From Pseudomonadota bacterium (GTDB lineage Bacteria; Pseudomonadota; Gammaproteobacteria; BMS3Bbin11): DNA of 64,000 nt. Every line of letters begins with the position of its first letter. Position 1 is the stretch's first letter. Where the stretch lies: assembly GCA_034659075.1 (NCBI GenBank), contig JAYEGM010000222.1, forward strand, positions 290 through 64,289. The letters run 5' to 3'. Below the pieces are notes generated by a model. It saw nothing but the letters and a program-made list of their open reading frames with translations, was not told the origin of the DNA and ran no database searches. Shown here in pieces: positions 272-62,541 of this stretch. A program made the position numbers and the translations under genes.

Positions 272-721
272 TTATGATTTTATAACCTGCTTTTTAGAAC
301 ACTTGCCGTTCTTTTTCATGCCCCCGCAAACTCCGTACAGATACAGGCTATGGTCTTCAATACAAAAGTCTGATTCTTCGGCGACCTGTTTCTGGCGTTC
401 TTCAATACGCGAATCAAAAAATTCAAATACTTCACCGCATTCTACGCAAACCATGTGATCATGGTGTTTCCCTTCATTCAGCTCAAAAACTGAGCTGCCG
501 CCTTCAAAGTGATGGCGGATAACCAGACCTGCGCCTTCAAATTGGGTCAGGACACGATAAACAGTAGCAAGGCCAATATCCTCATCAGCATCAAGCAACT
601 GGCGGTAGACATCTTCCGCCGTCAGATGACGTTGATCGCTCAGTTCAAGCAGGCGAAGAATCTTCAGCCTGGGTACAGTCGTTTTGAGTCCAGCCTTCTT
701 CAGGTCTGATTTATCCGGCAT
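272..721 (-). CDS. fur: Ferric uptake regulator Fur
   Basis: 149 aa; N-terminal winged-helix PRLKILRLL..., metal site HHDHMVCVECGEV...; typical Fur length and motifs. Confidence 0.9.
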   Translation of the reverse strand: MPDKSDLKKAGLKTTVPRLKILRLLELSDQRHLTAEDVYRQLLDADEDIGLATVYRVLTQFEGAGLVIRHHFEGGSSVFELNEGKHHDHMVCVECGEVFEFFDSRIEERQKQVAEESDFCIEDHSLYLYGVCGGMKKNGKCSKKQVIKS

Positions 722-3462: not shown

Positions 3463-3593
3463 ACTTGTATACCCTGATTCTTTCTACAAAATACGCTTTT
3501 ATCCGAAACCAGCTTCGCTGTTGACCTGTTTTATGATTGAATGCGACTTTACTACAGAACATTATTTAACATACTAAAGCCATTACACCAACC

Positions 3594-4076
3594 ATGTCCG
3601 GAAAATCAAAAAAGAAATCCTCACCTGGCAGCACCATAGCCTTAAACAAAAAGGCAAAATTTGATTACCACCTGGAAGAAAGGTATGAAGCCGGTATGGT
3701 ACTCGAAGGCTGGGAAGTCAAGAGTATGCGTGAAGGCCGCGCGCAGATGAAAGAAAGTTATGTGATTATCCGTAATGGTGAACTGTTCCTTTTCGGTGCG
3801 CATATCTCTCCGCTGATATCTGCCTCAACTCATATCCACCCCGACCCGACACGCATGCGAAAGCTGCTGCTCAACCGCCGGGAGATCAGCCATCTGATCG
3901 GTTCGGTAGAACGCGATGGCTATACCCTGGTACCGGTTGCCCTGTACTGGAAACATGGCCGAGCCAAGCTTGAAATTGCGCTGGCGAAAGGTAAAAAACA
4001 GCACGATAAGCGTGCATCTATCAAAGAGCGGGAATGGAAGCGGGACAAAGAGAGATTAATGAAACACAATCATTAA
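3594..4076 (+). CDS. smpB: SsrA-binding protein SmpB
   Basis: 160 aa; [39 protein letters not shown]... is canonical SmpB; immediately upstream of tmRNA. Confidence 0.95.
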
Positions 4077-4145
4077 AAGTCACCTCGATTCATCAGTGGC
4101 ACCCTTTGCACTTGAAATCCTCAACATTGCCAGCAAATAACTTGC

Positions 4146-4151
4146 TATAAT
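4146..4151 (+). promoter_or_regulatory. Candidate -10 box (TATAAT) of the ssrA promoter
   Basis: gctataatg sits 10 nt upstream of the tmRNA 5-prime GGGGG; no clean -35 found. Confidence 0.4.
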
Positions 4152-4161
4152 GATCAAACTT

Positions 4162-4518
4162 GGGGGCGACCGGTTTCGACACGGGTTACAAAGCCTTCAG
4201 TGCATGTCGAGGAGCAGATCCCCTCGTAAATCCAGCTGCACAACATAGTTGCCAACGACGACAACTACGCACTAGCCGCCTAATACCGGTTAGTCCTTTC
4301 ACCTTTGCTTGATTGTGGGCGGGGATTCGAAAGGTCATCTCACACAGTATCGCGATGAGGCATGTCTGTGGCCAAGTCGTTAAACTTTAAGCAGAATCGC
4401 CGTACGTTTTCCCAGTTTGCCGGGTAGCGGCCGGTTAAATCAAAGGTGCAAACTAAGCATGTAGATCTGGAGTGTAGAGGACTTGTGGACGGGAGTTCGA
4501 TTCTCCCCGCCTCCACCA
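4162..4518 (+). ncRNA. ssrA: tmRNA (SsrA), tag peptide ANDDNYALAA
   Basis: 5-prime GGGGGCGACCGGTTTCGACA; tag reading frame gccaacgacgacaactacgcactagccgcctaa = ANDDNYALAA*; 3-prime tRNA-like end GGACGGGAGTTCGATTCTCCCCGCCTCCACCA. Confidence 0.95.
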
Positions 4519-4724
4519 ATATTTAATACAACCCCTTGTTAATCAAGGGGTTTTTATTGGGTGAAATCCAATGAATTCACTGGTGAGATACAAAGGTATG
4601 TTACCAGTGAGTTCAAGAATCCCATCTTAACCTTACAAAAAACTGTTGAAGCACTACCTGTTTGAATAAAAACATTGAATCAGAATCATCCTCAGCAAAG
4701 CTTACAATACCAATAACTTTCTTA

Positions 4725-6500
4725 TCACTTCGCACATGCAGAGCCTATTTTTTTGAATAACTCGGTAGATTCAACAGGATGGCGTAGTGAATTCTTGAAT
4801 CCTTTTCCATCAACTTTAGAGGATTTATTATTTCCAATATTGGAATGACTAAACTTGATAAGGGCTAGAATGTCCTCAGAGAATTCAGAAATTTCATTTT
4901 CATTTAATGTGTCAACAACTACGCCATATTTGCATGAACAGCTTTGAGCAGCGTATTTTTTGAGCAGCCTTGATTCATCTTCACATGACCTTACATCGCT
5001 ATTTGATAACACTGCTAGCCGCATTTTACGTGAAAGTTTTTTCGTTGCTGTAATTGAAGAAGCAACACATTCATTGTAATCATTAATGAAATAACCTCCC
5101 CTTTCCCTATAGATTTCCGTGTATTTAATAATATTTTTTGGAAGTTTTTCTCTTTCAATCTTCGCTTTGGCATATAACTCTTTTCTTTCCTCGTGACACT
5201 TTTTATATTCTGCCTGGAAATCATGAATTGTCTTATTATTTGATGCAAGACTTACATATTTTGACGGAGGCTCTTCATTCCGACAATTCATAAAATCTTC
5301 ACCTGCTTTTTTACAAGTTAGGGAAATCAATTCAGTGTCATAACATTCTGTATATCTGGTAGCGATATATTCTTCAAGCCCATCAATCTTATCAAGCATT
5401 TTTGCTTTAGATGCATATTGATTTGGTTGTAGTTTTTTCAGGTTTACTGCATCTTCCTTCCCGCTCTTACATACATCTTCTATCAGCATGTCTGCCTGTG
5501 TCTTTTGTTTTAAGTAGAGCTCCTGGTTCTCCCTCTGAACCCTATTTTTCTCTTCTTCTATACGCCTTTTCTTTATCATTTCGAGTTCAGCCAGATATCC
5601 CTTTTTCCTCTTAGCTACAAGCTGTTCGTCTAATTCCCTCATTGCATTATTAGTTGCTTTGATATTTGCCAATGCAATACTCACTCCGGACAAATACGGC
5701 AAAATCATTTGCCGTTCAATATTGCTCATTTGATAGTCGAAAGGGGCCCCTTTAGTTCTATCAAACGCATTTTTTACATCTCTTTCACCATATGTACTAA
5801 ATGCTTCTTCCGAGTAGCCAATCTGTCCTTTCATTTGCTCTAACTGTCTCTTAAATTGGTCATCCCACAATGCAAAGCTATCTAGATTAAACTCTTTCCA
5901 GCCAGTAATATTGCACCAACGAGCAATAAGCGCCTCATCATTTTTACTAACTAAATAGGCATTCTGGCAACTTTTATTGAATCTCACCCTCAAATCCTCA
6001 GCACGTTTCTTCTCAGTGGCATAGCGACCTGGAACTTCTTCTACCACAGATATCCAGTCATGAAACCAGGCAAATGGTTTTTCAGATGTATGAGGAGGTA
6101 GTTTTAACCCTGAAACATCATGATTATTCTTAGAATATTCCTTATTATTGACCTTTCTCCTGGTAATTTCTTCTGGTGTAAAAGCAGCAGCCTTGCTACC
6201 GCTATTATTGTTGTCTATAGAAGGAATTGGGGTACTTGAAATAGTCGAATTATTTCGCCTGTAACATTTCTCATATTCTTTTCTTATAAGTGCTTCAAGT
6301 TCGATATATTTGCTACCAGCATTTTTCAGGGAGATTCCCCCAGAGTCCATGGTTTTTCCGCTTTTTGCATCATCTCTACCCATCTGACAACCCTGCTTAA
6401 TCAACATATTATGTTGATTAAGCACCTCTGCAGCATTTGAGTCTGAAATCATAATGGGAACAAAAAGTAATATTGCAAAAAAAGAAACTGCAATTTTCAT
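4725..6500 (-). CDS. Hypothetical secreted cysteine-rich coiled-coil protein (signal peptide; K/E-rich; recurring [E/T]Y-x-[EK]-C motifs)
   Basis: 591 aa uninterrupted ORF with N-terminal signal peptide MKIAVSFFAILLFVPIMISDSNA; coding region roughly 35% GC against about 48% in flanks; no recognisable catalytic motifs. Confidence 0.7.
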   Translation of the reverse strand: MKIAVSFFAILLFVPIMISDSNAAEVLNQHNMLIKQGCQMGRDDAKSGKTMDSGGISLKNAGSKYIELEALIRKEYEKCYRRNNSTISSTPIPSIDNNNSGSKAAAFTPEEITRRKVNNKEYSKNNHDVSGLKLPPHTSEKPFAWFHDWISVVEEVPGRYATEKKRAEDLRVRFNKSCQNAYLVSKNDEALIARWCNITGWKEFNLDSFALWDDQFKRQLEQMKGQIGYSEEAFSTYGERDVKNAFDRTKGAPFDYQMSNIERQMILPYLSGVSIALANIKATNNAMRELDEQLVAKRKKGYLAELEMIKKRRIEEEKNRVQRENQELYLKQKTQADMLIEDVCKSGKEDAVNLKKLQPNQYASKAKMLDKIDGLEEYIATRYTECYDTELISLTCKKAGEDFMNCRNEEPPSKYVSLASNNKTIHDFQAEYKKCHEERKELYAKAKIEREKLPKNIIKYTEIYRERGGYFINDYNECVASSITATKKLSRKMRLAVLSNSDVRSCEDESRLLKKYAAQSCSCKYGVVVDTLNENEISEFSEDILALIKFSHSNIGNNKSSKVDGKGFKNSLRHPVESTELFKKIGSACAK

Positions 6501-6758
6501 GGGTACTCCAAATAGTTAATAATTATCATATTACGGATAAATACTTGCTAATTTTAGTACATATTTTTTATTTGTGGTGGAAAGAATTATCATGAAACAA
6601 CTACTAAATCAGGAAACAAATTAAGCAAGTTGGGGGTGTGTTACAAAGGTGTGTTACACCTAAATTATCGTCATAATACAGCTGTTAATTCAATAGGTTG
6701 TGTGAGAGTGGGCAACCTCTCCCTGCCTCCTCCAAATACCCCCAGCAGTGCAGCAAGA

Positions 6759-6782
6759 GCCGCCCACCAGGGCGGCCCTTTT
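6759..6782 (+). terminator. Rho-independent terminator hairpin (gccgccc-acca-gggcggc then ccttttc), possibly the ancestral ssrA terminator
   Basis: 7-bp GC stem plus T-run on the plus strand, located 21 nt after a degenerate copy of the tmRNA 3-prime end. Confidence 0.5.
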
Positions 6783-6804
6783 CACTTTATATGGTAATGA
6801 ATGG

Positions 6805-7011
6805 CTAGTCCCGGTAGTGTGGGTCCATCCAGCACTTTGGCAAACTTTCGCCTGAAGGGAAACTTACCCCCACCTTCTTGAAATTTTCTGGTTCTGCGAC
6901 ATCTTCACCGAAATCCAGACGACCTGTGAATGAATCCTTGAAAGGATCAAATACCTCTGTAGGATCCAGTACTTCGATCAGATGACCGGAATTTTTTTCC
7001 ATAAGCAACAT
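6805..7011 (-). CDS. Small acidic hypothetical protein (68 aa)
   Basis: ORF only; no recognised family. Confidence 0.3.
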   Translation of the reverse strand: MLLMEKNSGHLIEVLDPTEVFDPFKDSFTGRLDFGEDVAEPENFKKVGVSFPSGESLPKCWMDPHYRD

Positions 7012-7252
7012 GACAAGTCTCCTTTTTTAATGCTGTGTTAAAACTCAATTATAATCCGAGTCTACGTAATAGCAATGATACAGATCAACTTCACTCTTGC
7101 AGGTTTTATTAAAACCTGGCCTGTTATCTGTTTCGGCTTCTTTACTTTCCTTATTATCCGTGTTTTTTTAAATATGGACAATTCCTCAGTCAAATTCTAC
7201 CTTTAGTCATTCCCTGCTTGAATCTGCTATTATTGACAGCTACTTTTGCTAT

Positions 7253-8467
7253 ATGGATCTTTACCTGGACAAAACATTACAATTAAAACCAATGCTTGAA
7301 GCTCTGGCACATTCATTAGCGGAAACGGATTACACGATTAACCGCGCCGATGTAGTTCGCTGGCTGCGCCCCTTTGCGGCGACCACACCTACTTTTTATC
7401 TACTATTTGTAATCCCGTTTGCTCTACTGGGATATTTTGCTCTGCTGCTGTTTCCCGCTCTTTCGATCTGGCTATATTTCAAGCTGATAAACTCACTTTA
7501 TTATGCTGCCGACTACCAGCACTGGCCTGACGCCATGATGATTGGCAGCTTCCTGTTACTCAGCACATTGGCAACCATCGCGCTGGCTAGACTGGCTTTC
7601 AGAAACCCGGCAGGAAGTGCTGTCAACGATGAGAGGACGCCGGTACTTTTCCACCTTGTAAAAAAGCTGCAGCAGCACTATGGCAATCCCGGAATTTCCA
7701 GGATACTCATCACGAGAGACGATAGTATACAAATTACCCGCAACCCTGTTAGCGGATTTCCAATTAAGTTTAGAAATACGCTCGAGATAGGCATGTCTGC
7801 CTTATTATGCACCTCACCAATGGAATTTCGCGGCATGCTTGCCAGGGAAATTGCCAAACTAGCCAGTCAGAAGAACCCTGTAACAGGCTGGATGTTAAGC
7901 CTGCATCGACAGTGGGCAGATTATCATTATTATCTTGAGCGTAGCGGAGGCCTTATACTGAAGCCACTGAGCTTTTTCTTTCGCTACTATTCACCTTTAT
8001 ATAATACCGTGTCGTTCTTCGCCGCTCGTCGAGCTGAAATACGGTCAGATCGCTACACACTGGAAGTCATGGAGGACGACGATGCCATCAACGCCATCAT
8101 TCAAACAATAATATTTCAGAATTTCCTGCGGGAAAAATACTGGCCACAGGTCGTGAATCAACCGAAAGACGGAAAACACCGGGTATTCCTGCCCTATAAG
8201 AAAATGAGCCAGACTGTTCGAAAAAACGTCAAACAAACTGATATAGAACGATGGGTTGAACTGGAGCTGCGAAAATTTGGCGATACCAGCACGACTCTAC
8301 CGCCGCTAAAGACCCGCCTTCATCTGTTAGGGCATATAATACCTGTCTATCCACCAGCACTTGAAGAAACTGCAGCAGAACACTATCTTGATTTATCTAT
8401 GCAGCAGCTATTAATTAACAGTTTCGATAAAAGCTGGATTAGGAAAGCAGGAATACAGTCCTCATAA
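7253..8467 (+). CDS. Membrane protein with a degenerate M48/M56-peptidase-like fold (HExxH replaced by RExxK)
   Basis: N-terminal TM helices; segment ...NTLEIGMSALLCTSPMEFRGMLAREIAKLASQKNP resembles the zincin region of M48/BlaR1 peptidases (..gLL..l..eEl.aVlAHElgHi..), but the first His is Arg and the second His is Lys (RExxK), which would abolish zinc binding. Confidence 0.55.
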   Translation: MDLYLDKTLQLKPMLEALAHSLAETDYTINRADVVRWLRPFAATTPTFYLLFVIPFALLGYFALLLFPALSIWLYFKLINSLYYAADYQHWPDAMMIGSFLLLSTLATIALARLAFRNPAGSAVNDERTPVLFHLVKKLQQHYGNPGISRILITRDDSIQITRNPVSGFPIKFRNTLEIGMSALLCTSPMEFRGMLAREIAKLASQKNPVTGWMLSLHRQWADYHYYLERSGGLILKPLSFFFRYYSPLYNTVSFFAARRAEIRSDRYTLEVMEDDDAINAIIQTIIFQNFLREKYWPQVVNQPKDGKHRVFLPYKKMSQTVRKNVKQTDIERWVELELRKFGDTSTTLPPLKTRLHLLGHIIPVYPPALEETAAEHYLDLSMQQLLINSFDKSWIRKAGIQSS

Positions 8468-40537: not shown

Positions 40538-42463
40538 CTACCATGGCTGTGGGTCACCGGCTTTACCGGAACCACCGCCACGTTGTATATACTGATAACG
40601 TAATTTCCGACGCAGCAAACCCGCCGGATCATCTGGAATCCGTCGCAGCCACTGTTCGGCTGCTATTTGTTCTTCGGAGCTTAAGTCTTCAGCTTCAGCA
40701 GTGGCTCTTCCTTTTCCTTGCTGATCACCATTCTCAGCTTGCTGTGGCTCTGCTGATTGAGCTTCTGACTGCTGAGCTTGTTCGGTACCTTTTTCACTGT
40801 CATTTCCTTCCTGCTGCTGAGCTGCCTGTTCTTCCTGCCGCTCAGACTCTTCACTTTCTGTATCCTTTCCAGCTTGTTCAGCGGCATCAGAAAAGGCGTT
40901 TTCATTGTCTTTCTTTTCTCCAGCGCCTGGCTTGTCCTCTGCCTGCTGCTGTACCTGTCCACCGCCTGAAGAATTGGATTCATCTCCCTGCTGACTATTC
41001 TTGCCCTGCTCATCCTGCTGGTTTTGCTTATCCTGATCGCCTTGCTGCTCTTTGTTGTCCTGCTTAGACTGTTGATTCTGTTCCGATTGCTTTTGCTGCT
41101 GCAGTAATTTCTCCACGGCTTTCCTGTTGAATTCAGCATCATCCATCCCTGGCTGCTCTTTCAATGCCTTATCATAAGCATCAATCGCTTCCTGCAACTT
41201 GCCAAGTTTTGCCAGCGCATTGCCCTTGTTGTAGGCCGCGTCAACACTTTCAAGTGAAAAAAAATCTTTAACCGCTGCTTCGTAATCACCCTTACGATAA
41301 TCTGCTACACCCTTGCGCAAAGGGTCCTGCGCCAGTTCAGATGCACGCTCTGCCTCACCTGCGAGCAGGGCTTTATGCGCCTGTTGATCCTGGCGCTGCC
41401 ACAGATCCGTCATACTGAATGCCATCGCCTGTTCATTTGGCATTACTGTAATGGCGAGCAGACAAACGCTCAGCAGCCAGCCACGCCGAAATGCCAGTGC
41501 GGCCAGTGGCAGGAGCAGGATAGCCAGCCAGGGCCCGGTTTCTTTCCAGCGGGTGGCCTCAAAAGTTTCATTTTCTGTATTGCTGCGAGAACCTTTGACG
41601 CGCGCTTCCATTAGCCGGCTGATATCCGCATCACTGGCAGAAAGGCTGACATAGCTGCCACCACCGGCATTGGTAAGCTTTTGCATTGCCGGAATATTAA
41701 GACTGGTAGTTATCACGTCACCGTCATTATTGGTAAAAAAACCACCCTTTCCGGTCGGCAATGGTGCGCCCTGCTCTGTGCCCATTCCCAGTACGGAGGT
41801 AATAACCCCCTGTTTTCGGAGTTTCTCTGCGACCTCGATAGTGCGCTGATCAGTATAAGAGTCGGCCAGCAGCAGAATTTCTCCCCGTAACCGCCCTGCC
41901 TGCTGCAGCAGTTCTGCTGCCTTCAGCAAACCCAGATCTGCGCGGCTGCCCTGCACCGGCATAATGCCAGGTTTCAGTGCCGGCAACATGGCGCTAATGG
42001 TGTCAGCATCACGTGTCAGCGGTGACACAACAAAAGCATCGCCGGCAAACACCACAAGCCCGATAACGCCTTCCTGCTGTAGTTTCAGTATATCGGACAC
42101 TTTAAATCGTGCACGCTCAATACGGGAGGGTTTAAGGTCGCTGCTGTTCATGGAACGGGATAGATCAAGTACGATAACACGCGCCTGATCTGTCTGAAAA
42201 ACAGGCTGCGGAAGCTTCTCCCATACCGGGTTAGCCAGAGCGATGACTGTAATGAACCAGCCTGTCGACAGCAGCCAAAATGGCAATCGGTTGCCGCTGC
42301 CGGCTTTAGAAATTCGCAACCAGCTCAATAGCTTTTTATCAATAATACTGGACCAGGCGTCATTTTCACTGCCACCCTGCCTCAGCAGCATGCCAAGAAG
42401 GAGAACTAAGGGCAGCAGTAAATAAAGCCACTGTGGCTGTAGAAAATGAAAATTTTCAGGCAT
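40538..42463 (-). CDS. BatB/BatC-like fusion: VWA domain plus TPR repeats with a long Q/E/D-rich low-complexity tail
   Basis: Start set at MPENFHF (N-terminal TM). VWA region VIVLDLSRSM...; TPR region AYNKGNALAKLGKLQEAIDAYDKAL; about 150 aa tail rich in Q, E, D and K. Confidence 0.8.
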   Translation of the reverse strand: MPENFHFLQPQWLYLLLPLVLLLGMLLRQGGSENDAWSSIIDKKLLSWLRISKAGSGNRLPFWLLSTGWFITVIALANPVWEKLPQPVFQTDQARVIVLDLSRSMNSSDLKPSRIERARFKVSDILKLQQEGVIGLVVFAGDAFVVSPLTRDADTISAMLPALKPGIMPVQGSRADLGLLKAAELLQQAGRLRGEILLLADSYTDQRTIEVAEKLRKQGVITSVLGMGTEQGAPLPTGKGGFFTNNDGDVITTSLNIPAMQKLTNAGGGSYVSLSASDADISRLMEARVKGSRSNTENETFEATRWKETGPWLAILLLPLAALAFRRGWLLSVCLLAITVMPNEQAMAFSMTDLWQRQDQQAHKALLAGEAERASELAQDPLRKGVADYRKGDYEAAVKDFFSLESVDAAYNKGNALAKLGKLQEAIDAYDKALKEQPGMDDAEFNRKAVEKLLQQQKQSEQNQQSKQDNKEQQGDQDKQNQQDEQGKNSQQGDESNSSGGGQVQQQAEDKPGAGEKKDNENAFSDAAEQAGKDTESEESERQEEQAAQQQEGNDSEKGTEQAQQSEAQSAEPQQAENGDQQGKGRATAEAEDLSSEEQIAAEQWLRRIPDDPAGLLRRKLRYQYIQRGGGSGKAGDPQPW

Positions 42464-43469
42464 GTTTCGCCTCTCTGCGCAGGAGGAAGCTGAGCAAAGA
42501 CAGTTTCGACAAGGCCAGCAATATAGATAGAACCATTGCAATCGACAGAGGCCAGAAATACAGTTCATTTACCGGCCGGTATACTTCTACGTCATCGGCT
42601 ATCGGCTCCACCTCATCCAGCAGACTGTAGATTTGCAGCAGTGATTCAACATCCCTGGCGCGGTAATAACTGCCGCCTGTCTTGTCGGATATAGCCTGTA
42701 AGGTTTCTTCATCGATATCGGCACTGACCGCTTGCTGTCGGCCAAACAAGTCTCGAACCATGCGACTGTCGGCACCCACGCCTATGGTATAAATTCTTAT
42801 CTTTTCCTGCGCGGCAAGATCGGCGGCCTTCAGCGGCTCGATAGTGCCTGCTGTATTACTGCCATCTGTTAACAGGATTAGAACGCGATTCTGTTCAGGC
42901 TCATTGCGTAAACGTTTGACTGCCAGGCCAATGGCATCACCGATGGCTGTTTTCTTTCCGGCCAGACCTATCGCAGACTCCTGCAGCAGTGTCTTTACTG
43001 TTTTTCTGTCCAGCGTCAGCGGAGTCTGCAGATATGCCCTGTCACCGAATAGAATCAAGCCAAGGCGATCACCGACACGTCGGTCGATAAACTCTCCGGC
43101 AACCGCCTTGACCGCGGCCAGACGTGATACCTGCCGGTTGCCAATTACCATATCATCGGCTTCCATGCTGCCCGAAAGGTCGACTGCAAGCATCAGGTTC
43201 CTGCCCTGTACCGGCAGTTGGATCGCATCACCAACTGACTGGGGGCGAGCGGCAGAAACCAGCAGCAGCAGCCAGATGACAACCGCAATTATGAGCCGGA
43301 TACGGGACGCCGGTCCGGCTTCATGCTGCAGTTGTGAGTGCATGGCAGCGTAAAAGGGTACACGGATGGTAGAGATCTGCAGCTCATCCGCCTTCGGTAG
43401 CAATAGCCTGATTAATAGCGGTAAAGGCAGCAGCAGAAAAATCCATGGTAATGAAAAATTTATATCCAT
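42456..43469 (-). CDS. batA: BatA-like VWA-domain membrane protein
   Basis: N-terminal TM MDINFSLPWIFLLLPLPLLI; VWA MIDAS region LMLAVDLSGSM...TDGSNTAG. Confidence 0.85.
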   Translation of the reverse strand: MDINFSLPWIFLLLPLPLLIRLLLPKADELQISTIRVPFYAAMHSQLQHEAGPASRIRLIIAVVIWLLLLVSAARPQSVGDAIQLPVQGRNLMLAVDLSGSMEADDMVIGNRQVSRLAAVKAVAGEFIDRRVGDRLGLILFGDRAYLQTPLTLDRKTVKTLLQESAIGLAGKKTAIGDAIGLAVKRLRNEPEQNRVLILLTDGSNTAGTIEPLKAADLAAQEKIRIYTIGVGADSRMVRDLFGRQQAVSADIDEETLQAISDKTGGSYYRARDVESLLQIYSLLDEVEPIADDVEVYRPVNELYFWPLSIAMVLSILLALSKLSLLSFLLRREAKHA

Positions 43470-43612
43470 TGTTGGCTTATATTTCTAAGTCCGCTGCACT
43501 CTCACAATCTCGTCTTTCCGGCGAATGCCGGATTCCAGTGGCGGTAAAAAATAAAATACTTTCTGGATACTCGCATACGCGTGCAGGACGGTTTTTTTGT
43601 ATCGGCATTGTT

Positions 43613-44092
43613 CTAGATTACCCTCGTATTTCGTTCAATCCATTTCCTGGCCAATTGCAGCAGGCCTTCTTTGTCTACATTACTTTTATGCATATAGGGC
43701 CCGGCCTCCAGCACACTGCCTGCGCCATTGACAAAGTCACCTTCTCCGCCATGCATGTCGAGAAAAGACAGCCAGCCTTTGCCTGTCAGTGCCGCCACTT
43801 CTTTTCGCGGGTATTTGAGTAAGGCAACGCGGCGCAGCAGCGTCGACACTGATGCCAGAAATTCAGGTATTTGGTCATCAGTCACCGTTTTCGATAAATC
43901 ATCCAGTAGCAAAAATATTTCCCTTTGGGCTCTTTTCCGTCGCCAGAAACTGATCAAACGAATAGCCAGCCAGCAGAGAATCGCCACAGCAAGCAGAGCT
44001 ACTATCCACCAGCCGGGTGCCGGCGGCCAGAATTCAGGACTGGCGGGCAGATGAACGTCTCGCAATTGTAATGTTTGCTCAGCAGGATTCAT
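43613..44092 (-). CDS. DUF4381-domain membrane protein
   Basis: 159 aa; single TM WWIVALLAVAILCWLAI; conserved position between the DUF58 and batA genes. Confidence 0.7.
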   Translation of the reverse strand: MNPAEQTLQLRDVHLPASPEFWPPAPGWWIVALLAVAILCWLAIRLISFWRRKRAQREIFLLLDDLSKTVTDDQIPEFLASVSTLLRRVALLKYPRKEVAALTGKGWLSFLDMHGGEGDFVNGAGSVLEAGPYMHKSNVDKEGLLQLARKWIERNTRVI

Positions 44093-45117
44093 GCCGCCGC
44101 TCTGCCTGGCACAGTTGCACCACTATTAGGATTCGCCATAAACCGGCGCAAAGCTATCGCCGCATCATCAGCTGTGGATAAGCGCAGTAAAGGGATAGCC
44201 CGTTTACGCATGACTTCGGCAACTGCCGAATTATGCTCAATGCACCATCGCTCATAGCGCTGACGTTGTTTAGTGGCGCGGGTATCAATAATGGCTGACT
44301 GTTGACCGTCACTGACCCCGTAAACCCCCGCTGGCGGCGGGGATGTTTCTATTGGATCAAACAACTGTATAGCCACCACATCATTATGCTGACGCAGTCG
44401 CAATAACTGGGCCGAAGTCTCTTCGCTGACATGATAAAAGTCACTGAGGATAAAAATCAGACTGCCGGGCTTTGTCACCCGACGACAGCGTTTTAGCGCA
44501 CTATCAAGACCGGGATTATCTGTCTTCTCCTGCGCCGACTGCATACCTTTCACAGGGTCCGTTGCCGACATCAGCAGCCTGAACAAACGCAGAGCACCCT
44601 TTGCCCCACCGGCAGGGGGAAGCTCCTGGTGTCTGCCATTAAAGACCAGGGCTCCAATTCGGTCGCCATTTGCCACCCCGGTCCATGCGATCAGCGCTGC
44701 CAGACGTGCAGCCTGTACAGACTTGAATGCTCCCCTTGTGGCAAAGAACATACCGGGATTGAGATCAATCAACAGCATTACCGGCCGTTCACGTTCTTCC
44801 TCATACATCTTGACGTAGGGATGACCGGCACGTGCGGTTACCCGCCAGTCCATGCTGCGCACATCATCACCCGGCTGATAGGCACGTGACTCCTGGTAAT
44901 CCATACCACGGCCGCGAAAGCGGGAGGCATGCGCACCAGTAATAGAACTGTTTTTTACCCGTGCCGAAGTCAGGCTGATGCCGCGTACAGCCGCTTTCAG
45001 TGCAATCAGTTCGCCTATACTCACCGCCACACAGGATGATGCTGCCGGATCATTGTGCCCTGCATCAGTCAGGGGCTTGTCGCCAAAACCCAGTTTATTC
45101 CAGATCCTCTGCAGCAT
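44089..45117 (-). CDS. DUF58-domain protein (MoxR-associated, VWA-like)
   Basis: 342 aa; conserved DUF58 region ...YQPGDDVRSMDWRVTAR...; 4-nt overlap with the downstream gene. Confidence 0.8.
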   Translation of the reverse strand: MLQRIWNKLGFGDKPLTDAGHNDPAASSCVAVSIGELIALKAAVRGISLTSARVKNSSITGAHASRFRGRGMDYQESRAYQPGDDVRSMDWRVTARAGHPYVKMYEEERERPVMLLIDLNPGMFFATRGAFKSVQAARLAALIAWTGVANGDRIGALVFNGRHQELPPAGGAKGALRLFRLLMSATDPVKGMQSAQEKTDNPGLDSALKRCRRVTKPGSLIFILSDFYHVSEETSAQLLRLRQHNDVVAIQLFDPIETSPPPAGVYGVSDGQQSAIIDTRATKQRQRYERWCIEHNSAVAEVMRKRAIPLLRLSTADDAAIALRRFMANPNSGATVPGRAAA

Positions 45118-46139
45118 CAGGAAACCGGCACTCGCCTCACCAGTTCATTAATAAAGTCATCAGGCGAGACGCCTTCTGCCTCGGCTTCAAAAGAAAGCAG
45201 TACACGATGCCGCAATACATTGTGCACAACTGCCTGTACATCTTCAGGCGAAACATAATCTCGCTGCTGCAGCCAGGCATGCGACCGCGCACAACGATCC
45301 AGCGCAATAGTTCCACGCGGACTGGCGCCATAATTCACCCAGCGCACAAGATCCTCACCATAAGACTTCGGTTTCCGACTGGCCATCACCAGCTGTACCA
45401 TATAATCCTCAACGGCTTCCGCCATATGTAAATCCAGCACTTCATTCTGAGCCTGCCGGATCTGGTCTTTGCTTAGAATCACTTCCACTGCAGGCAGGTT
45501 TGCAGTCTCAATCCTGGCCTGCTCTTTCGCCAGGGCAAGAATCTGTTTTTCTGTACCGACAGCCGGATAATCTATACTGATATGCATCAGAAAGCGGTCA
45601 AGCTGAGCTTCAGGCAACGGGTAGGTCCCTTCCTGTTCAATCGGATTCTGTGTCGCCATTACCAGAAATGGCCGCTCCAGCTTATAAGTAGTCTGGCCGA
45701 CGGTAACCTGATGTTCACCCATCGCCTCAAGCAGTGCAGACTGCACTTTGGCCGGGGCACGGTTGATTTCGTCTGCCAGCAATAAATTGTGGAAAATCGG
45801 CCCATGCTGAAAGTTAAACTCGCCGGTTTGCGGTCGATAGATCTCGGTTCCGGTCAGGTCACCGGGCAGCAGGTCCGGGGTAAACTGCAGTCGGTGAAAA
45901 TCACCTTCTATGCGTGATGCCAGCTCTTTAATAGCTGTTGTCTTGGCCAGGCCCGGTGCACCTTCAACCAGTAAATGACCATCTGCCAGCAAGGCTATCA
46001 GCAGGCTGTCAACCAGTGACTCCTGTCCGATAATTTTTTCCTGCAGCTGCGTACGCAGACGATTAAACGACGTGTATACTGTTGCCGAAGCTGTCGAGGC
46101 TGCTGCAACATTTTCCTGCGATGCCAGTTGTGAATCCAT
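45117..46139 (-). CDS. MoxR-family AAA+ ATPase
   Basis: Walker A GAPGLAKTT; Walker B LLLADEINRAP; typical MoxR length. Confidence 0.9.
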   Translation of the reverse strand: MDSQLASQENVAAASTASATVYTSFNRLRTQLQEKIIGQESLVDSLLIALLADGHLLVEGAPGLAKTTAIKELASRIEGDFHRLQFTPDLLPGDLTGTEIYRPQTGEFNFQHGPIFHNLLLADEINRAPAKVQSALLEAMGEHQVTVGQTTYKLERPFLVMATQNPIEQEGTYPLPEAQLDRFLMHISIDYPAVGTEKQILALAKEQARIETANLPAVEVILSKDQIRQAQNEVLDLHMAEAVEDYMVQLVMASRKPKSYGEDLVRWVNYGASPRGTIALDRCARSHAWLQQRDYVSPEDVQAVVHNVLRHRVLLSFEAEAEGVSPDDFINELVRRVPVS

Positions 46140-58969: not shown

Positions 58970-59518
58970 TTAGCCCTTAGTCTTATCCGTTGACCTCCCA
59001 TCCCCTTCGTCTACCTCCACCAAAATCCTTCGCCACTGCTCAAGCTTCTCATCAAAACGCATCGCCGCATATGCCGGGCTGGTAGAAGGCAGCTTTTGAT
59101 AACGCAGCTCGCAAGAATAAATCTCTTTCTGGCAGAGAACATGTTTTTTATATAATCGCTCAGCAGTACCGCCATTAAAGTAGACACATCTAATCGAGCG
59201 ATGAGCAGAAAATAATCGGACAAAATCATTCGCCTGCTCAGTAGCAGTCTCGATGCTCGAATCCAGACTGCCAACCCTATTGCAGGTTTTCAATACATCC
59301 CAGACAGCCAGGCCACAGTCCGTAAGCCTTGTACAACGTTCATCATAGTCGCTGCCCCGTTCGATATCGAGCAGCTCTTGCATAATCGGCCAGAACGCAT
59401 TTCTGGGGTGCGCATAGTATTGCTGCTGTCGTAAAGAAGCCACGCCCGGCATGGATCCCAGAATCAGAACTCTGCAATTTTCCTGCACCACAGGATCAAA
59501 GCTTCTTAAAAGGGCCAT
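58970..59518 (-). CDS. UDG-superfamily DNA glycosylase (DNA-deoxyinosine / hypoxanthine glycosylase-like)
   Basis: RVLILGSMPGVASL motif and overall UDG-fold pattern; start set at MALLRSF. Confidence 0.65.
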   Translation of the reverse strand: MALLRSFDPVVQENCRVLILGSMPGVASLRQQQYYAHPRNAFWPIMQELLDIERGSDYDERCTRLTDCGLAVWDVLKTCNRVGSLDSSIETATEQANDFVRLFSAHRSIRCVYFNGGTAERLYKKHVLCQKEIYSCELRYQKLPSTSPAYAAMRFDEKLEQWRRILVEVDEGDGRSTDKTKG

Positions 59519-60684
59519 ACATCTCTTGCCAGGCGCAAGCCGGCAAACATATGGCGTTTTTCCGGCTGGTAGAAGTTGCGAAATGATGGGTGGCAAACAG
59601 TCTTTCCTGAAAACCGACTATTACCTTTTAATGTGTAATGATTGCCATCAAACCAGGGACTGGAATAGCGTTCATACGGGAAGGCCTTGAAGCCCGGATA
59701 GGGGAAAAAGGTATTGGCGCACCATTCCCACACTTCTCCGGTCGACTTATTTAACACAGGATCTGATGCCACTGCAGCCTCCCATTCGTGTTCATGCGGT
59801 AATCGGCAAGCCGCATAACGTGCAAAAGCATCCGCTTCATACCAGCTAATTCCCGAAACAGCTGCATCGGGATCAATATCTACAACCCCCTCTGGGCTTA
59901 TTTCACACCAGTTTTCTGATTTATCACGCAGCCAGAATTCAGGTGCATGTAATTGTCTCTCTGTTATCCATTGCCAGCCAGCCCTGCTCCAGAAACTTTT
60001 TTGCTGATAACCGGCGGCCTGCATAAAACCCAGATACTCGGCATTACTGACCGGTTTCTCAGCAAGTTGATAAGCAGCAAGCTCTGTTTCATGTACCGGT
60101 TGTTCATTATCACAGGCCAGAACATCATTGGAGCCGACTTCGTATCTACCTTGTTCAAACGATGCTTCTGGCAACGCGGGTCCGTGTGCATCAAAGCTTT
60201 TAACCATTGAATTTGTTACAGATGCCGTTCCAAGGGCTTTCTGATGCAGTGCCATCTGCATCGTTTCCAGGTGCTGTTCGCCGTGCTGGAGCAGAAACCA
60301 GCCAATATAATCATATTCCAGCAGCGGATGCTTCTGTTGCCTGGATAGTTTTTCGAATAACAGGACGGACAATAAATTTTCCGCATCAGAAAAGTCATGC
60401 TGCAGACGTGAAAAGTCAGTCATCCCCGGCAACTCACCGCGTTCAGACTTAGCTATCATTTCCGGAAAATAACAGTGATGAAAACCTGCAGTTCTGCTGT
60501 TGTCATTCAGCAAAACTTCGCGCAACCAGTACTGCTCGATAAACGCAACATGTGCAAGATGCCAGCCCAACTGACTGAGATCAGCGTGATACTGATTACG
60601 CAATTCTGCCTCAGAACAGGTGGAAAACTGTTTTATCAGCCGATCATGTAGAGATGAAAGACCCTCTGCAACTGATGTATTCAC
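59506..60684 (-). CDS. egtB: Ergothioneine biosynthesis sulfoxide synthase EgtB-like (DinB_2 plus FGE-sulfatase domains)
   Basis: N-terminal DinB-like HxxxE region (WHLAHVAFIEQYW); C-terminal FGE-like domain (...GEVWEWC...); 4-nt overlap with upstream egtC; egtD adjacent. Confidence 0.75.
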   Translation of the reverse strand: MNTSVAEGLSSLHDRLIKQFSTCSEAELRNQYHADLSQLGWHLAHVAFIEQYWLREVLLNDNSRTAGFHHCYFPEMIAKSERGELPGMTDFSRLQHDFSDAENLLSVLLFEKLSRQQKHPLLEYDYIGWFLLQHGEQHLETMQMALHQKALGTASVTNSMVKSFDAHGPALPEASFEQGRYEVGSNDVLACDNEQPVHETELAAYQLAEKPVSNAEYLGFMQAAGYQQKSFWSRAGWQWITERQLHAPEFWLRDKSENWCEISPEGVVDIDPDAAVSGISWYEADAFARYAACRLPHEHEWEAAVASDPVLNKSTGEVWEWCANTFFPYPGFKAFPYERYSSPWFDGNHYTLKGNSRFSGKTVCHPSFRNFYQPEKRHMFAGLRLARDVWPF

Positions 60685-61460
60685 AAATGGATTTCTACCG
60701 GCACATTACCGCCGTCAAAAACCATTAATGACTGCGGTGTCACTTCTGTCCAGTCCGCATCATCCGTCAACGGCTCAGAGGCAACCAGACAGGCGCCGGG
60801 AAATGGCGGGGGATTTAGTGAGTAATATAACGAAGGACAGTTTCCATTGATTGCACAGCGCATCGCCCAGATTTTCCCGGGGACAGCAATGATTATATTT
60901 AACAGACCGCGTTCATCTTTTAACCAGGCTTTTAATCGCGAAACCATTTCAATCAATGCCGCAGCCGGGTCATTTGTATTCATTTCCCACATGATTTGCT
61001 TAAACAGGATGAACAAGTGCTCTGAATCGGTATTGCCTTCGATAAAATCCTCGAATTCAGGTTTAAATTCTCGCCGTAAACATGAACGAAGTGTGCGTGA
61101 AAATTTATTAATATAACCGTTATGCATGAACTGAAATTTTTCATCCGCATAAGGCATGGTATTGGCAAGATTGATCGGGATATTTGTCGTGGCACTGCGC
61201 ACAACAGCTACCCAGGTATCAGATTTCAACCCTCGGCCTAACTCAGGCAAATTCGGATCGGTCCAGATAGGCATGGTCTGTCGATATCGTAATGGCTGAC
61301 CCATCTGATCAAACCAGCCAAAGCCGTAGCCATCAGCATTCAGCCTGGCTTCTATCATTTCTCTGGGAGCCCATGACTGCTTCACCAGGCTATGCTCCGG
61401 CTTGAGCAGCATTTCTTCTAGCCGCAAAGCAGGACCAATATAAGCTGCAAGTCTGCACAT
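60681..61460 (-). CDS. egtC: Class-II glutamine amidotransferase EgtC-like amidohydrolase
   Basis: N-terminal MCRLAAYIG (Ntn Cys nucleophile); ...DGYGFGWFD; about 259 aa, typical of EgtC. Confidence 0.75.
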   Translation of the reverse strand: MCRLAAYIGPALRLEEMLLKPEHSLVKQSWAPREMIEARLNADGYGFGWFDQMGQPLRYRQTMPIWTDPNLPELGRGLKSDTWVAVVRSATTNIPINLANTMPYADEKFQFMHNGYINKFSRTLRSCLRREFKPEFEDFIEGNTDSEHLFILFKQIMWEMNTNDPAAALIEMVSRLKAWLKDERGLLNIIIAVPGKIWAMRCAINGNCPSLYYSLNPPPFPGACLVASEPLTDDADWTEVTPQSLMVFDGGNVPVEIHL

Positions 61461-61536: not shown

Positions 61537-62541
61537 ATGCAAGAAGCTGTAAAAATTGACTCAAGCCGGTTTCAGTTAAACCGGCTATCACCGGAACAGC
61601 ATCTAGATTCACTGGTAGAGGACATCTACGCAGGTTTGCTGAGCCGCCCCCGCAGCTTGCCGCCAAAGTACTTCTATGATGAGCGCGGCTCTATGCTATT
61701 TGATCAGATTTGCCAGACCAATGAGTATTACCTGACGCGAGCTGAATCCGCACTTTTAAAGAAGCATGCCGATGAGATCGTCGCCACTGTAAGGCCAACG
61801 GCTATTGTTGAATACGGCAGTGGCACATCCGAAAAAACCGAGCTGCTTATTCAGGCAGCCAATCAGCATTACGACTGGTTGCATTACCTGCCGCTGGATG
61901 TCTGCGAAGAAATACTGATTGAGTCGTCGAAGCGTCTGTTAGACAGATATCCCTGGTTATCCATTGATGCATGGCATGGTGACTTTTTACATGATATGCA
62001 ACTATTCAATAATAGTCATACACGCAGCCTTTATACTTTTCTTGGCAGCTCCTTAGGTAATTTTTCATATGATGAGGCCAGCCAGTTTTTGCGCGATGTG
62101 AGAAATACAGCCTATGACGATGACTGGTTTCTGCTGGGTATTGATATGGTCAAAGATCACAGCATCCTGAATGCTGCCTATAATGACATTGAGGGATACA
62201 CAGCAGCATTTAACCTTAATCTGCTGAATGTACTGAACCAGGCACTTGATGGTAATTTTAATACTGAAAAATTCGAACACCACGCTTTTTTTGATGTTGA
62301 TAATTCCCGTGTCGAAATGCGTTTACGCTCCTGTTGCCGGCAAACCGTTATACTCCGGGATATTGATTTAAAGATAGATTTCGAGGATGGCGAACACATT
62401 ACTACGGAATACAGCCGGAAATACACAGCCGACTCGATACACCAGCTATTGACCAGCACCGGCTTCTCTCCAGAGCATATATACACGGGTGACAACAATG
62501 AATTTATGCTGATCCTTTCTCGATGTTCAAAAGCCGATTAA
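61537..62541 (+). CDS. egtD: L-histidine N-alpha-methyltransferase EgtD
   Basis: Hallmark motif LPPKYFYDERGSMLFDQI... and SAM-binding VEYGSGTSEKT; about 330 aa. Confidence 0.88.
   Translation: MQEAVKIDSSRFQLNRLSPEQHLDSLVEDIYAGLLSRPRSLPPKYFYDERGSMLFDQICQTNEYYLTRAESALLKKHADEIVATVRPTAIVEYGSGTSEKTELLIQAANQHYDWLHYLPLDVCEEILIESSKRLLDRYPWLSIDAWHGDFLHDMQLFNNSHTRSLYTFLGSSLGNFSYDEASQFLRDVRNTAYDDDWFLLGIDMVKDHSILNAAYNDIEGYTAAFNLNLLNVLNQALDGNFNTEKFEHHAFFDVDNSRVEMRLRSCCRQTVILRDIDLKIDFEDGEHITTEYSRKYTADSIHQLLTSTGFSPEHIYTGDNNEFMLILSRCSKAD

Follow-up and report, generated by a model that had tools for sequence, protein, structure and literature searches.

Genomic islands that lie in the 3′ end of ssrA, the gene for transfer-messenger RNA (tmRNA), and are bounded by a repeat of about 20 bp of the gene end are well described, including tandem arrays and crossovers in the T-loop; for islands of this kind without an integrase, the authors suggest that they are cis-mobilizable (PMC3146451). 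The T-loop is one of the sublocations used by integrases that target tRNA and tmRNA genes, and recombination sites of this sublocation typically span the stretch between T-loop and CCA end (bioRxiv 10.1101/2020.11.02.365908). A related class is the cis-mobilizable element (CIME), a decayed remnant of an integrative and conjugative element (ICE) or an integrative and mobilizable element (IME) that has kept the attachment sites attL and attR and lost its genes for integration and transfer (PMC5704250). Here we describe a one-gene islet at the 3′ end of ssrA in 64,000 nucleotides (nt) of contig JAYEGM010000222.1 (the whole analysed stretch is called the window), which comes from an uncultured gammaproteobacterium of a marine or sediment lineage. 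Positions 4520-6717 are probably a small element that was inserted into the ssrA 3′ end by site-specific recombination, because the locus combines empty sites in relatives, a displaced terminator, the position of the repeated core, paired motifs in both arms, a left end shared with other islets and a consistent host tree.

The islet resembles genomic islands and prophages integrated in ssrA, such as the islands of Dehalococcoides (PMC3146451) and Klebsiella (bioRxiv 10.1101/2020.11.02.365908), in having a single-copy tmRNA gene as its target, a crossover in or at the T-loop, a gene rebuilt at attL, a hypervariable region downstream of ssrA and a composition unlike that of the host. The tmRNA gene is full length, with the insert beginning at 4520; a direct repeat of the gene end (16/18) marks the far border at 6718-6735; the site is unoccupied in three related contigs, L091, L116 and L121; and both the G+C content (GC) and the G+C content at third codon positions (GC3) of its gene deviate from those of the other genes of the window. 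Unlike the islands, the islet is only 2.2 kb long, with one gene and neither an integrase of its own nor an integration module, whereas the Dehalococcoides islands usually have a serine-recombinase module next to attL; and in place of genes for metabolism, virulence or defence it carries that of an uncharacterised secreted protein. Otherwise a genomic islet of textbook type, it stands out only by being so small, by lacking an integrase and by the uncharacterised nature of its cargo.

The comparison with unoccupied sites defines the insert. The closest relatives found, L091 and L116, are collinear with the window on both sides of the islet. By blastn, window positions 3500-4519 correspond to L116 2343-3353 and positions 6804-7119 to L116 3529-3847, and the 2284 nt in between (4520-6803) correspond to 175 nt in L116. 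All three islet-free contigs are metagenome contigs, and the identities listed for them in Table 1 are amino acid (aa) identities to the window. A preliminary description of the locus predicted that in related genomes ssrA would be followed directly by the terminator that lies at 6759-6782 of the window and then by the downstream genes, and this arrangement was found in L091 and L116. It had also considered, as contrary evidence, that relatives might carry the same gene at this position, with equally low GC and no empty configuration: the gene does stand next to ssrA at equally low GC in L081/L082 and in L107, but empty sites exist, and they exist in closer relatives. In a tree of o404, the conserved gene to the right, the window clusters with L091 and L116, the two contigs with an empty site, islets carrying a phosphoribosyltransferase gene fall in sister groups, and L097 and a second clade bearing the islet's 591-aa gene lie on the other major branch. 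Most likely, the insertion occurred in the window's own lineage, after its split from the nearest sampled relatives, into an empty site.

The right border retains the sequence that follows ssrA directly in these relatives. Window positions 6718-6790 match the empty-site tmRNA end and terminator in 58 of 77 columns for L091 and 57 of 78 for L116, with the attR core aligned to the true tmRNA 3′ end; 6718-6735 is therefore the displaced end of ssrA, and 6759-6776 its ancestral terminator hairpin (T2). The T2 hairpin is GCCGCCCaccaGGGCGGC, followed by CCTTTTC, and the 41 nt that hold it (6750-6790) fold with -17.8 kcal/mol (z = -4.35). About 20 nt past the tmRNA CCA, both L091 and L116 have GGCCGTCCatctGG(G/A)CGGCC plus TTTTT, and the CCA end of L116 is followed by aacatccccacagtagtaactaaGGCCGTCCatctGGACGGCCttttt. 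The core itself, placed by the Rfam alignment, comprises the last T-loop base, the 3′ strand of the T-stem, the 3′ strand of the acceptor stem, the discriminator, CCA and one further nt. When both strands of the 64 kb are searched with up to three mismatches allowed, the copy at attR is its only match. With up to two mismatches allowed, a match appeared in 0 of 2000 shuffles of the downstream 5 kb that preserved dinucleotides, and in 2 of 300 shuffles of the whole window, searched on both strands. To the left of 6718, similarity to a longer tmRNA remnant was not significant (equalled in 100 of 2000 shuffles) and was out of register.

These results agree with the outline given by the preliminary description, in which an element entered the ssrA 3′ end, the gene was rebuilt at attL, and the old end and terminator were left at attR. 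The empty sites support this outline, and the homology of T2 to the ssrA terminator of L091 and L116 bears out the displaced terminator; the shuffles likewise set aside the worry that the repeat might be no better than chance. Some points need revision. The repeat, described as 21 nt, is real and unique in the window, but extends over only 18 nt, the final three positions being mismatched. The account of the terminators correctly took T2 as ancestral but omitted a second hairpin, T1. The 44 nt that hold T1 (4519-4562) fold with -16.7 kcal/mol (z = -3.7), and the copy of this stretch in L097 folds alike. T1 is a terminator hairpin that the element brought with it and that now ends transcription of ssrA.

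Both arms of the insert have features of their own. Its first ~75 nt, consisting of T1 and caatgaattcactggtgagataca, are found at the corresponding position in L097 and L120, and the empty sites of L091, L116 and L121 lack them. Window positions 4110-4592 match L097 10-495 at 89%, despite the other cargo of L097, and positions 4533-4592 match L120 9-69 at 82%, upstream of the phosphoribosyltransferase gene. The motif GGTRWGWTAC is present in four copies in the 64 kb, all on one strand and all at the ends of the islet (4582/4595 and 6635/6648), with the copies of each pair 13 nt apart; 0.52 copies are expected, and four or more were seen in none of 100 shuffles. As a 23-nt direct repeat, 4582-4604 and 6635-6657 agree at 20 of 23 positions, a score unmatched in 300 shuffles of the two ends. 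In attP sites of the lambda type, the core is flanked by arm-type binding sites for the integrase. The islet is similar in that motifs in direct orientation flank the core to the left and right at distances of tens of nt, as they would after integration had split them; it differs in that the consensus and spacing of the candidate motif are established only in this one islet. Judged by their position and statistics, the motif pairs may be arm-type sites of a tyrosine recombinase, in the P′ and P arms of a former attP.

The most probable course of events is the following. A circular or otherwise mobile DNA, with an attachment core matching the last ~18 nt of ssrA from T-loop to CCA, would have recombined through its attP with the corresponding attB core of the chromosomal ssrA. 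The attL junction would have rebuilt an intact tmRNA gene that ends at the element-borne T1, and the original 18-nt gene end, together with T2, would have been pushed 2.2 kb downstream to attR. Freed from selection, the displaced gene end would then have taken on its two substitutions. As it stands, the element is made up of two short arms and one cargo gene module. Its recombination genes may have been lost later, or the islet may always have relied on an integrase elsewhere, so that it would be either a decayed remnant or a mini-element mobilisable in cis or in trans. Because attR has two mismatches, the islet is probably immobile, or fixed, at present. Of this account, the insert as seen against the empty sites, the repeat at its borders, the displacement of T2, the motif pairs and the lack of an integrase in the islet are direct observations; recombination by an integrase, the function of the motifs, the direction and date of the event and the present immobility are interpretation.

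The preliminary description called the locus a decayed islet without a remaining integrase. The second part is borne out within the islet: searches of its sole gene with Pfam, NCBIfam and PADLOC revealed no integrase or excisionase and there is no other open reading frame (ORF) of note, the flanking 200-nt stretches of the islet containing none above 55 aa. Decay is one option, but an islet that never had an integrase and was mobilised by one encoded elsewhere is also conceivable. In structure the islet resembles a CIME. It is bounded by attL and attR (both cores are present, attR with two mismatches, and there are paired motifs in both arms), it has no genes for integration or transfer, its sole gene not being a recombinase, and it occupies a tRNA-type gene site where other elements land, with larger defence islands stacked there in L092 and L117. 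The stacked islands make accretion plausible. The definition of CIMEs was drawn up in Firmicutes, for elements adjoining known ICEs, and it is in structure that the islet fits it.

The locus is also marked by its composition. Over 400-nt intervals, GC is 0.33-0.40 from ~4600 to 6800, against 0.45-0.50 on the flanks and 0.475 for the whole window, and the 591-aa ORF is the sole non-shadow ORF of at least 60 aa in the low-GC stretch; the drop over ~2.2 kb and the single gene are as first described. The ORF has GC 0.367 and GC3 0.311, about 4 standard deviations (sd) below the other 35 genes tested in both measures (GC 0.484, sd 0.029; GC3 0.495, sd 0.046). The deviation is real, but it says little about the timing of the insertion. 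In all seven other loci examined, the gene family has GC 0.366-0.394, 3-10 points under its surroundings. Low GC thus characterises the family wherever it is found; it neither dates the insertion nor marks a recent arrival from a distant donor.

Table 1. Features of the window, and related loci on other contigs (window positions unless a contig is named)
Feature or locus	Position	Strand	Description
smpB	3594..4076	+	conserved left neighbour of ssrA; Pfam SmpB, E = 4.6e-60
ssrA (tmRNA gene)	4162..4518	+	ARAGORN; Rfam RF00023, 227.7 bits, full length
attL core	4502..4519	+	16/18 direct repeat of 6718-6735; sequence TCTCCCCGCCTCCACCAA
Element-derived left end (putative P′ arm)	4519..4592	+	common to relatives' islets with different cargo
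T1, terminator hairpin	4530..4552	+	terminator scan; 9-bp stem then TTTTTATT; directly after tmRNA CCA end
20-nt inverted repeat	4572..4615 (4572-4591 + 4596-4615)		85% complementary, 4-nt spacer; overlaps left motif pair
Left tandem pair GGTRWGWTAC	4582..4604	+	candidate arm-type recombinase site; 62 nt to attL core
Cargo module	4663..6627	-	591-aa gene with ~62 nt of 3′ flank and 127 nt of 5′ flank
591-aa ORF	4725..6500	-	secreted, cysteine-rich protein, predicted all-helical; no recognisable family
Right tandem pair GGTRWGWTAC	6635..6657	+	candidate P-arm sites; 60 nt to attR core
attR core	6718..6735	+	displaced ancestral ssrA 3′ end, 2 mismatches; sequence TCTCCCTGCCTCCTCCAA
T2, terminator hairpin	6759..6782	+	terminator scan; homologous to hairpin directly 3′ of ssrA in L091, L116
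o68	6805..7011	-	conserved 68-aa gene; first chromosomal gene right of the islet
o404	7253..8467	+	conserved right-hand anchor gene for finding related loci; 40 homologues
L116, islet-free			SmpB 96.9%, SNF transporter 95.2%, o68 94%, o404 90.5%; order RnfH, cyclase, SNF, SmpB, tmRNA, o68, o404
L091, islet-free	tmRNA 3′ end at 92, terminator ~113-141, o68 272-475		o404 93%, o68 97%
L121, islet-free			more distant; o404 82% (P0029); order SmpB, tmRNA, GCCGTCtcagGACGGC + TTTTTT, ~270 nt, o404
L097 islet			same left end; cargo a 98-aa lipoprotein-like ORF
L120 islet			same left end; 229-aa phosphoribosyltransferase, then 36-nt tmRNA 3′ remnant, decayed T2, o68
L092, L117-L119			defence-type block, then phosphoribosyltransferase: HsdM fragment, AAA_15/SMC, AbiEii/AbiEi, SNF2 helicase, RES/Xre
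L095			transposase-like ORF and broken phosphoribosyltransferase at the hotspot
L096-L098			GGDEF protein in front of o404
Commonest locus of the 591-aa gene (X)	L084-L090, L102-L106		Aldedh ... FlgT_N-like ... X ... Amidase_2, 114 aa, SulP, DUF350, SLT; of these, Amidase_2, SLT and FlgT_N-like are cell-envelope genes
Gene 3′ of tRNA-Arg(CCT), inside commonest locus	L090 (2887-4865), L102 (5196-7121)		
Gene 5′ of tRNA-Arg(CCT), inside commonest locus	L084 (9489-11773)		
Gene adjoining ssrA in a more distant clade	L081/L082/L083, L107		SmpB 88.6%, measured on L081/L082

The interval between ssrA and o404 takes many forms among the relatives, which identifies it as a recombination hotspot. At least six states were found: empty; the islet of the window; the phosphoribosyltransferase islet; the lipoprotein islet; a defence stack, with AbiE, RES/Xre, type I restriction-modification and SNF2 helicase genes; and the 591-aa gene without att sites. 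The L093 islet is equivalent to that of L120, with a tmRNA 3′ remnant of ~60 nt at its right end. No remnants of phosphoribosyltransferase or lipoprotein cargo were found inside the islet of the window. We conclude that related elements with a common left arm have probably hit the ssrA site several times, and that the event in the window was separate from those that gave the phosphoribosyltransferase islets and is comparatively young, considering its intact T2 stem (decayed in the phosphoribosyltransferase islets) and its remnant of 18 nt, which differs from the 36-60 nt of L120 and L093 and so indicates separate events.

The cargo gene has a history of its own. The cargo module is kept at 78-79% nt identity wherever the gene adjoins ssrA (by blastn, 78.6% between window 4663-6627 and L107, and 78% between 4718-6619 and L081). 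Its protein has 18 homologues, with identities of 53-72%; 16 are full-length (575-597 aa), and none is recorded with a Pfam domain. The family alignment contains a signal peptide, 14 invariant cysteines and a low-complexity linker, and, in our own reading, it suggests repeated helical modules of the form C-x2-G-x-D/E-D-A ... Y-x2-C. Neither the single sequence nor all 16 members matched Pfam, and NCBIfam and PADLOC also gave no match; the best match of a profile against PDB, with E = 0.02 to a coiled-coil stretch of EDS1, was treated as noise. An AlphaFold2 model has a mean predicted local distance difference test score (pLDDT) of 59.9 and is confident only for residues ~300-450, a helical core, and Foldseek found nothing in PDB at E <= 0.001. 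A profile search of 1.84e9 representative proteins returned nothing beyond the cluster of the family itself and four fragments; the family is therefore without recognisable relatives and confined to this lineage of bacteria. Around the gene in L084, L090 and L102, a search for att-like repeats of the tRNA-Arg 3′ end found none. All its contexts taken together, the gene has come to lie near tRNA or tmRNA genes in at least three arrangements, and only that of the window has the full site-specific signature. The window copy is about equidistant from the two nearest subgroups, and a mosaic origin from these was rejected, there being no block structure.

Several observations weigh against the proposed integration. 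Neither the islet nor the 10 mid-size ORFs of the window that were tested (306-394 aa, ordinary housekeeping or metabolic genes) encode an integrase or excisionase, and the recombinase is therefore something that we infer. A donor or circular form was not found, and scans of viral contigs with the left end and the arm motif gave 0 matches. We also infer the arm-site role of GGTRWGWTAC solely from position and statistics. The cargo gene differs by at least 28% from each homologue sampled and shows no mosaic origin from these, and a recent transfer cannot be demonstrated. The clade of L081 and L107 holds the gene at ssrA without a detectable attR, and to the right of a hairpin apparently homologous to T2, the opposite side from that in the window; the gene therefore came to the neighbourhood of ssrA by more than one route, or else has an older and more complicated past. 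Finally, the left-end segment is common to deep branches of the host tree, which may mean that the islet is old and its cargo was later replaced.

The last point leads to an explanation of opposite polarity, in which the att-bounded islet is an old resident, L091, L116 and L121 were emptied by precise, integrase-mediated excision, and the window retained the islet, possibly after a replacement of cargo. The segment from T1 onward is indeed found in both major host clades (window, L120 and L097), and all sister groups of the trio formed by the window, L091 and L116 carry an islet at this site. The depth of divergence of the cargo gene, and its position beside ssrA also in L081 and L107, would fit long residence as well, but the junctions of these two contigs differ from that of the window and have no attR. 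Moreover, attR and T2 of the window, which match the empty sites at 75%, are far better kept than those of the phosphoribosyltransferase islets, and the difference in length of the tmRNA remnants marks different events. At least two independent excisions would be needed within the closest trio, against a single gain. Overall, we regard excision from the relatives as unlikely.

Less likely again is a scenario in which the islet is not a decayed island but a member of a family of cassettes, that is, integrase-less single-gene units of attP, terminator and gene that are inserted in trans by an unlinked integrase. Three one-gene islets with the ~75-nt left end in common occupy the same site, with the 591-aa gene, the lipoprotein gene of L097 and the phosphoribosyltransferase gene of L120/L093, and an integrase was seen in none of the three. 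Only the left end is common to them, however: they differ in their right arms and in how long the tmRNA remnant is, and while both arms of the window islet look intact with paired motifs, L097 and L120 hold a single copy of the motif and no recognisable right arm or motif pair. Elements bounded by att sites and lacking an integrase have precedents among those described as CIMEs (PMC5704250; PMC3146451), but an integrase, a circular form or a second copy of any of the cassettes was not found, and the three cases also fit deletional decay in which a selected gene was retained. There is thus a small chance that the lineage has minimal ssrA-targeted cassettes, each with a shared arm that includes a terminator, arm-type repeats and one cargo gene, served by a trans-acting, unlinked integrase. 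If so, the system would be functionally analogous to integron cassettes but aimed at ssrA, and the cargo gene, which is also found on either side of tRNA-Arg(CCT), would habitually travel with recombination sites of tRNA and tmRNA genes.

That no mobile element is involved, the repeat being due to chance or local duplication and the 591-aa gene being a vertically inherited AT-rich gene, would accord with the gene's presence at ssrA in L081/L082 and L107 at equally low GC, with the low GC intrinsic to the family in every context and with its restriction to this lineage, but is very improbable given the shuffle tests of the 18-nt repeat, the existence of three empty sites, two of them in the closest relatives and exactly collinear with the window to the left and right of the islet, the fact that 6718-6790 is homologous to the tmRNA end and native terminator, and the motif pairs at matching distances from both cores. 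Two other classes of element were considered and rejected. An integron gene cassette does not fit an insertion in ssrA with a gene-end repeat and with direct-repeat ends in place of an imperfect-palindrome attC, and no integron integrase was present among the window ORFs tested. A prophage or phage satellite does not fit a single gene without a PADLOC, Pfam or NCBIfam match (PHROGs was not searched) and without related ends in viral contigs.

The same viral contigs contain the 28-nt tmRNA 3′ end, mostly in phage tRNA-Ala genes and in tmRNA or tmRNA-like sequences; as candidates for a parent element, none of these matches was relevant. Several phage tRNA-Ala genes carry the same 28 nt (L110, L112, L113 and L115), and exact copies are found outside genes called by ARAGORN in L108 (10690-10800) and L114 (3558-3640), of which the former resembles a two-piece (permuted) tmRNA and the latter a short tRNA-like element.

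With respect to the neighbouring genes, ssrA follows smpB directly and is intact, encoding the tag peptide ANDDNYALAA, and SmpB of the window is 96.9% identical to that of L116. A scan of the genome collection with SmpB gave, among the matches listed, relatives of at most 77% identity, and the related loci were reached through the 591-aa protein and the anchor gene o404. The product of o68 has no Pfam or NCBIfam family; by tblastn it is 85-97% identical in six relatives (L091, L093, L095, L097, L116 and L120), and it is missing at this locus in L081/L107, L092/L117 and L121. The true start of o404 is probably M14, at 7292.

Some further observations were made at these loci. The defence-type stack upstream of o404 extends over L117 1-9866, with an SNF2/ResIII helicase and a RES toxin with its Xre antitoxin, and over L092 1-3251. 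The ORF at L095 2-733, which runs off the contig start, encodes 243 aa that look transposase-like by eye and have no NCBIfam match. In L090, the neighbouring gene for a thiamine pyrophosphate (TPP) enzyme is truncated to 76 aa, and the tRNA-Arg(CCT) gene at 4788-4865 is 78 nt long with a 10-nt internal duplication (gctggatagagctggatagag), possibly an assembly artefact or a damaged gene. The 5′ part of the 591-aa coding sequence contains a perfect palindrome of 15+15 nt at window 6394-6424 (TGCTTAATCAACATA / TATGTTGATTAAGCA, with a 1-nt spacer); the peptide it encodes, LNQHNMLIKQ, is not conserved in homologues. Farther along the window, a gene for an FGE-sulfatase/DinB_2 protein (59506-60684, minus strand) and one for a Methyltransf_33 histidine methyltransferase (61537-62541, plus strand), with a 259-aa ORF between them (60681-61460, minus strand), look like an EgtB/EgtD-type pair for ergothioneine biosynthesis, and genes for a MoxR-type AAA_3 ATPase, a DUF58 protein and a VWA-domain protein form a cluster of the MoxR-VWA type (42456-46139, minus strand).

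Finally, we note that this locus offers a clean comparative case of insertion into a tmRNA gene in an uncultured lineage, in which an element appears to have replaced the terminator of its target gene and stranded the original one downstream. It also carries a caution, in that composition alone cannot date an acquisition when the cargo gene has 37-39% GC in every genome and locus. Its value lies in the candidate arm sites, in the one-gene islets with a common left arm and in a mobile cargo protein restricted to this lineage. If the left arm and the motif pairs are indeed recombinase sites, they could be used to trace the missing integrase and to list the cargo of the family.

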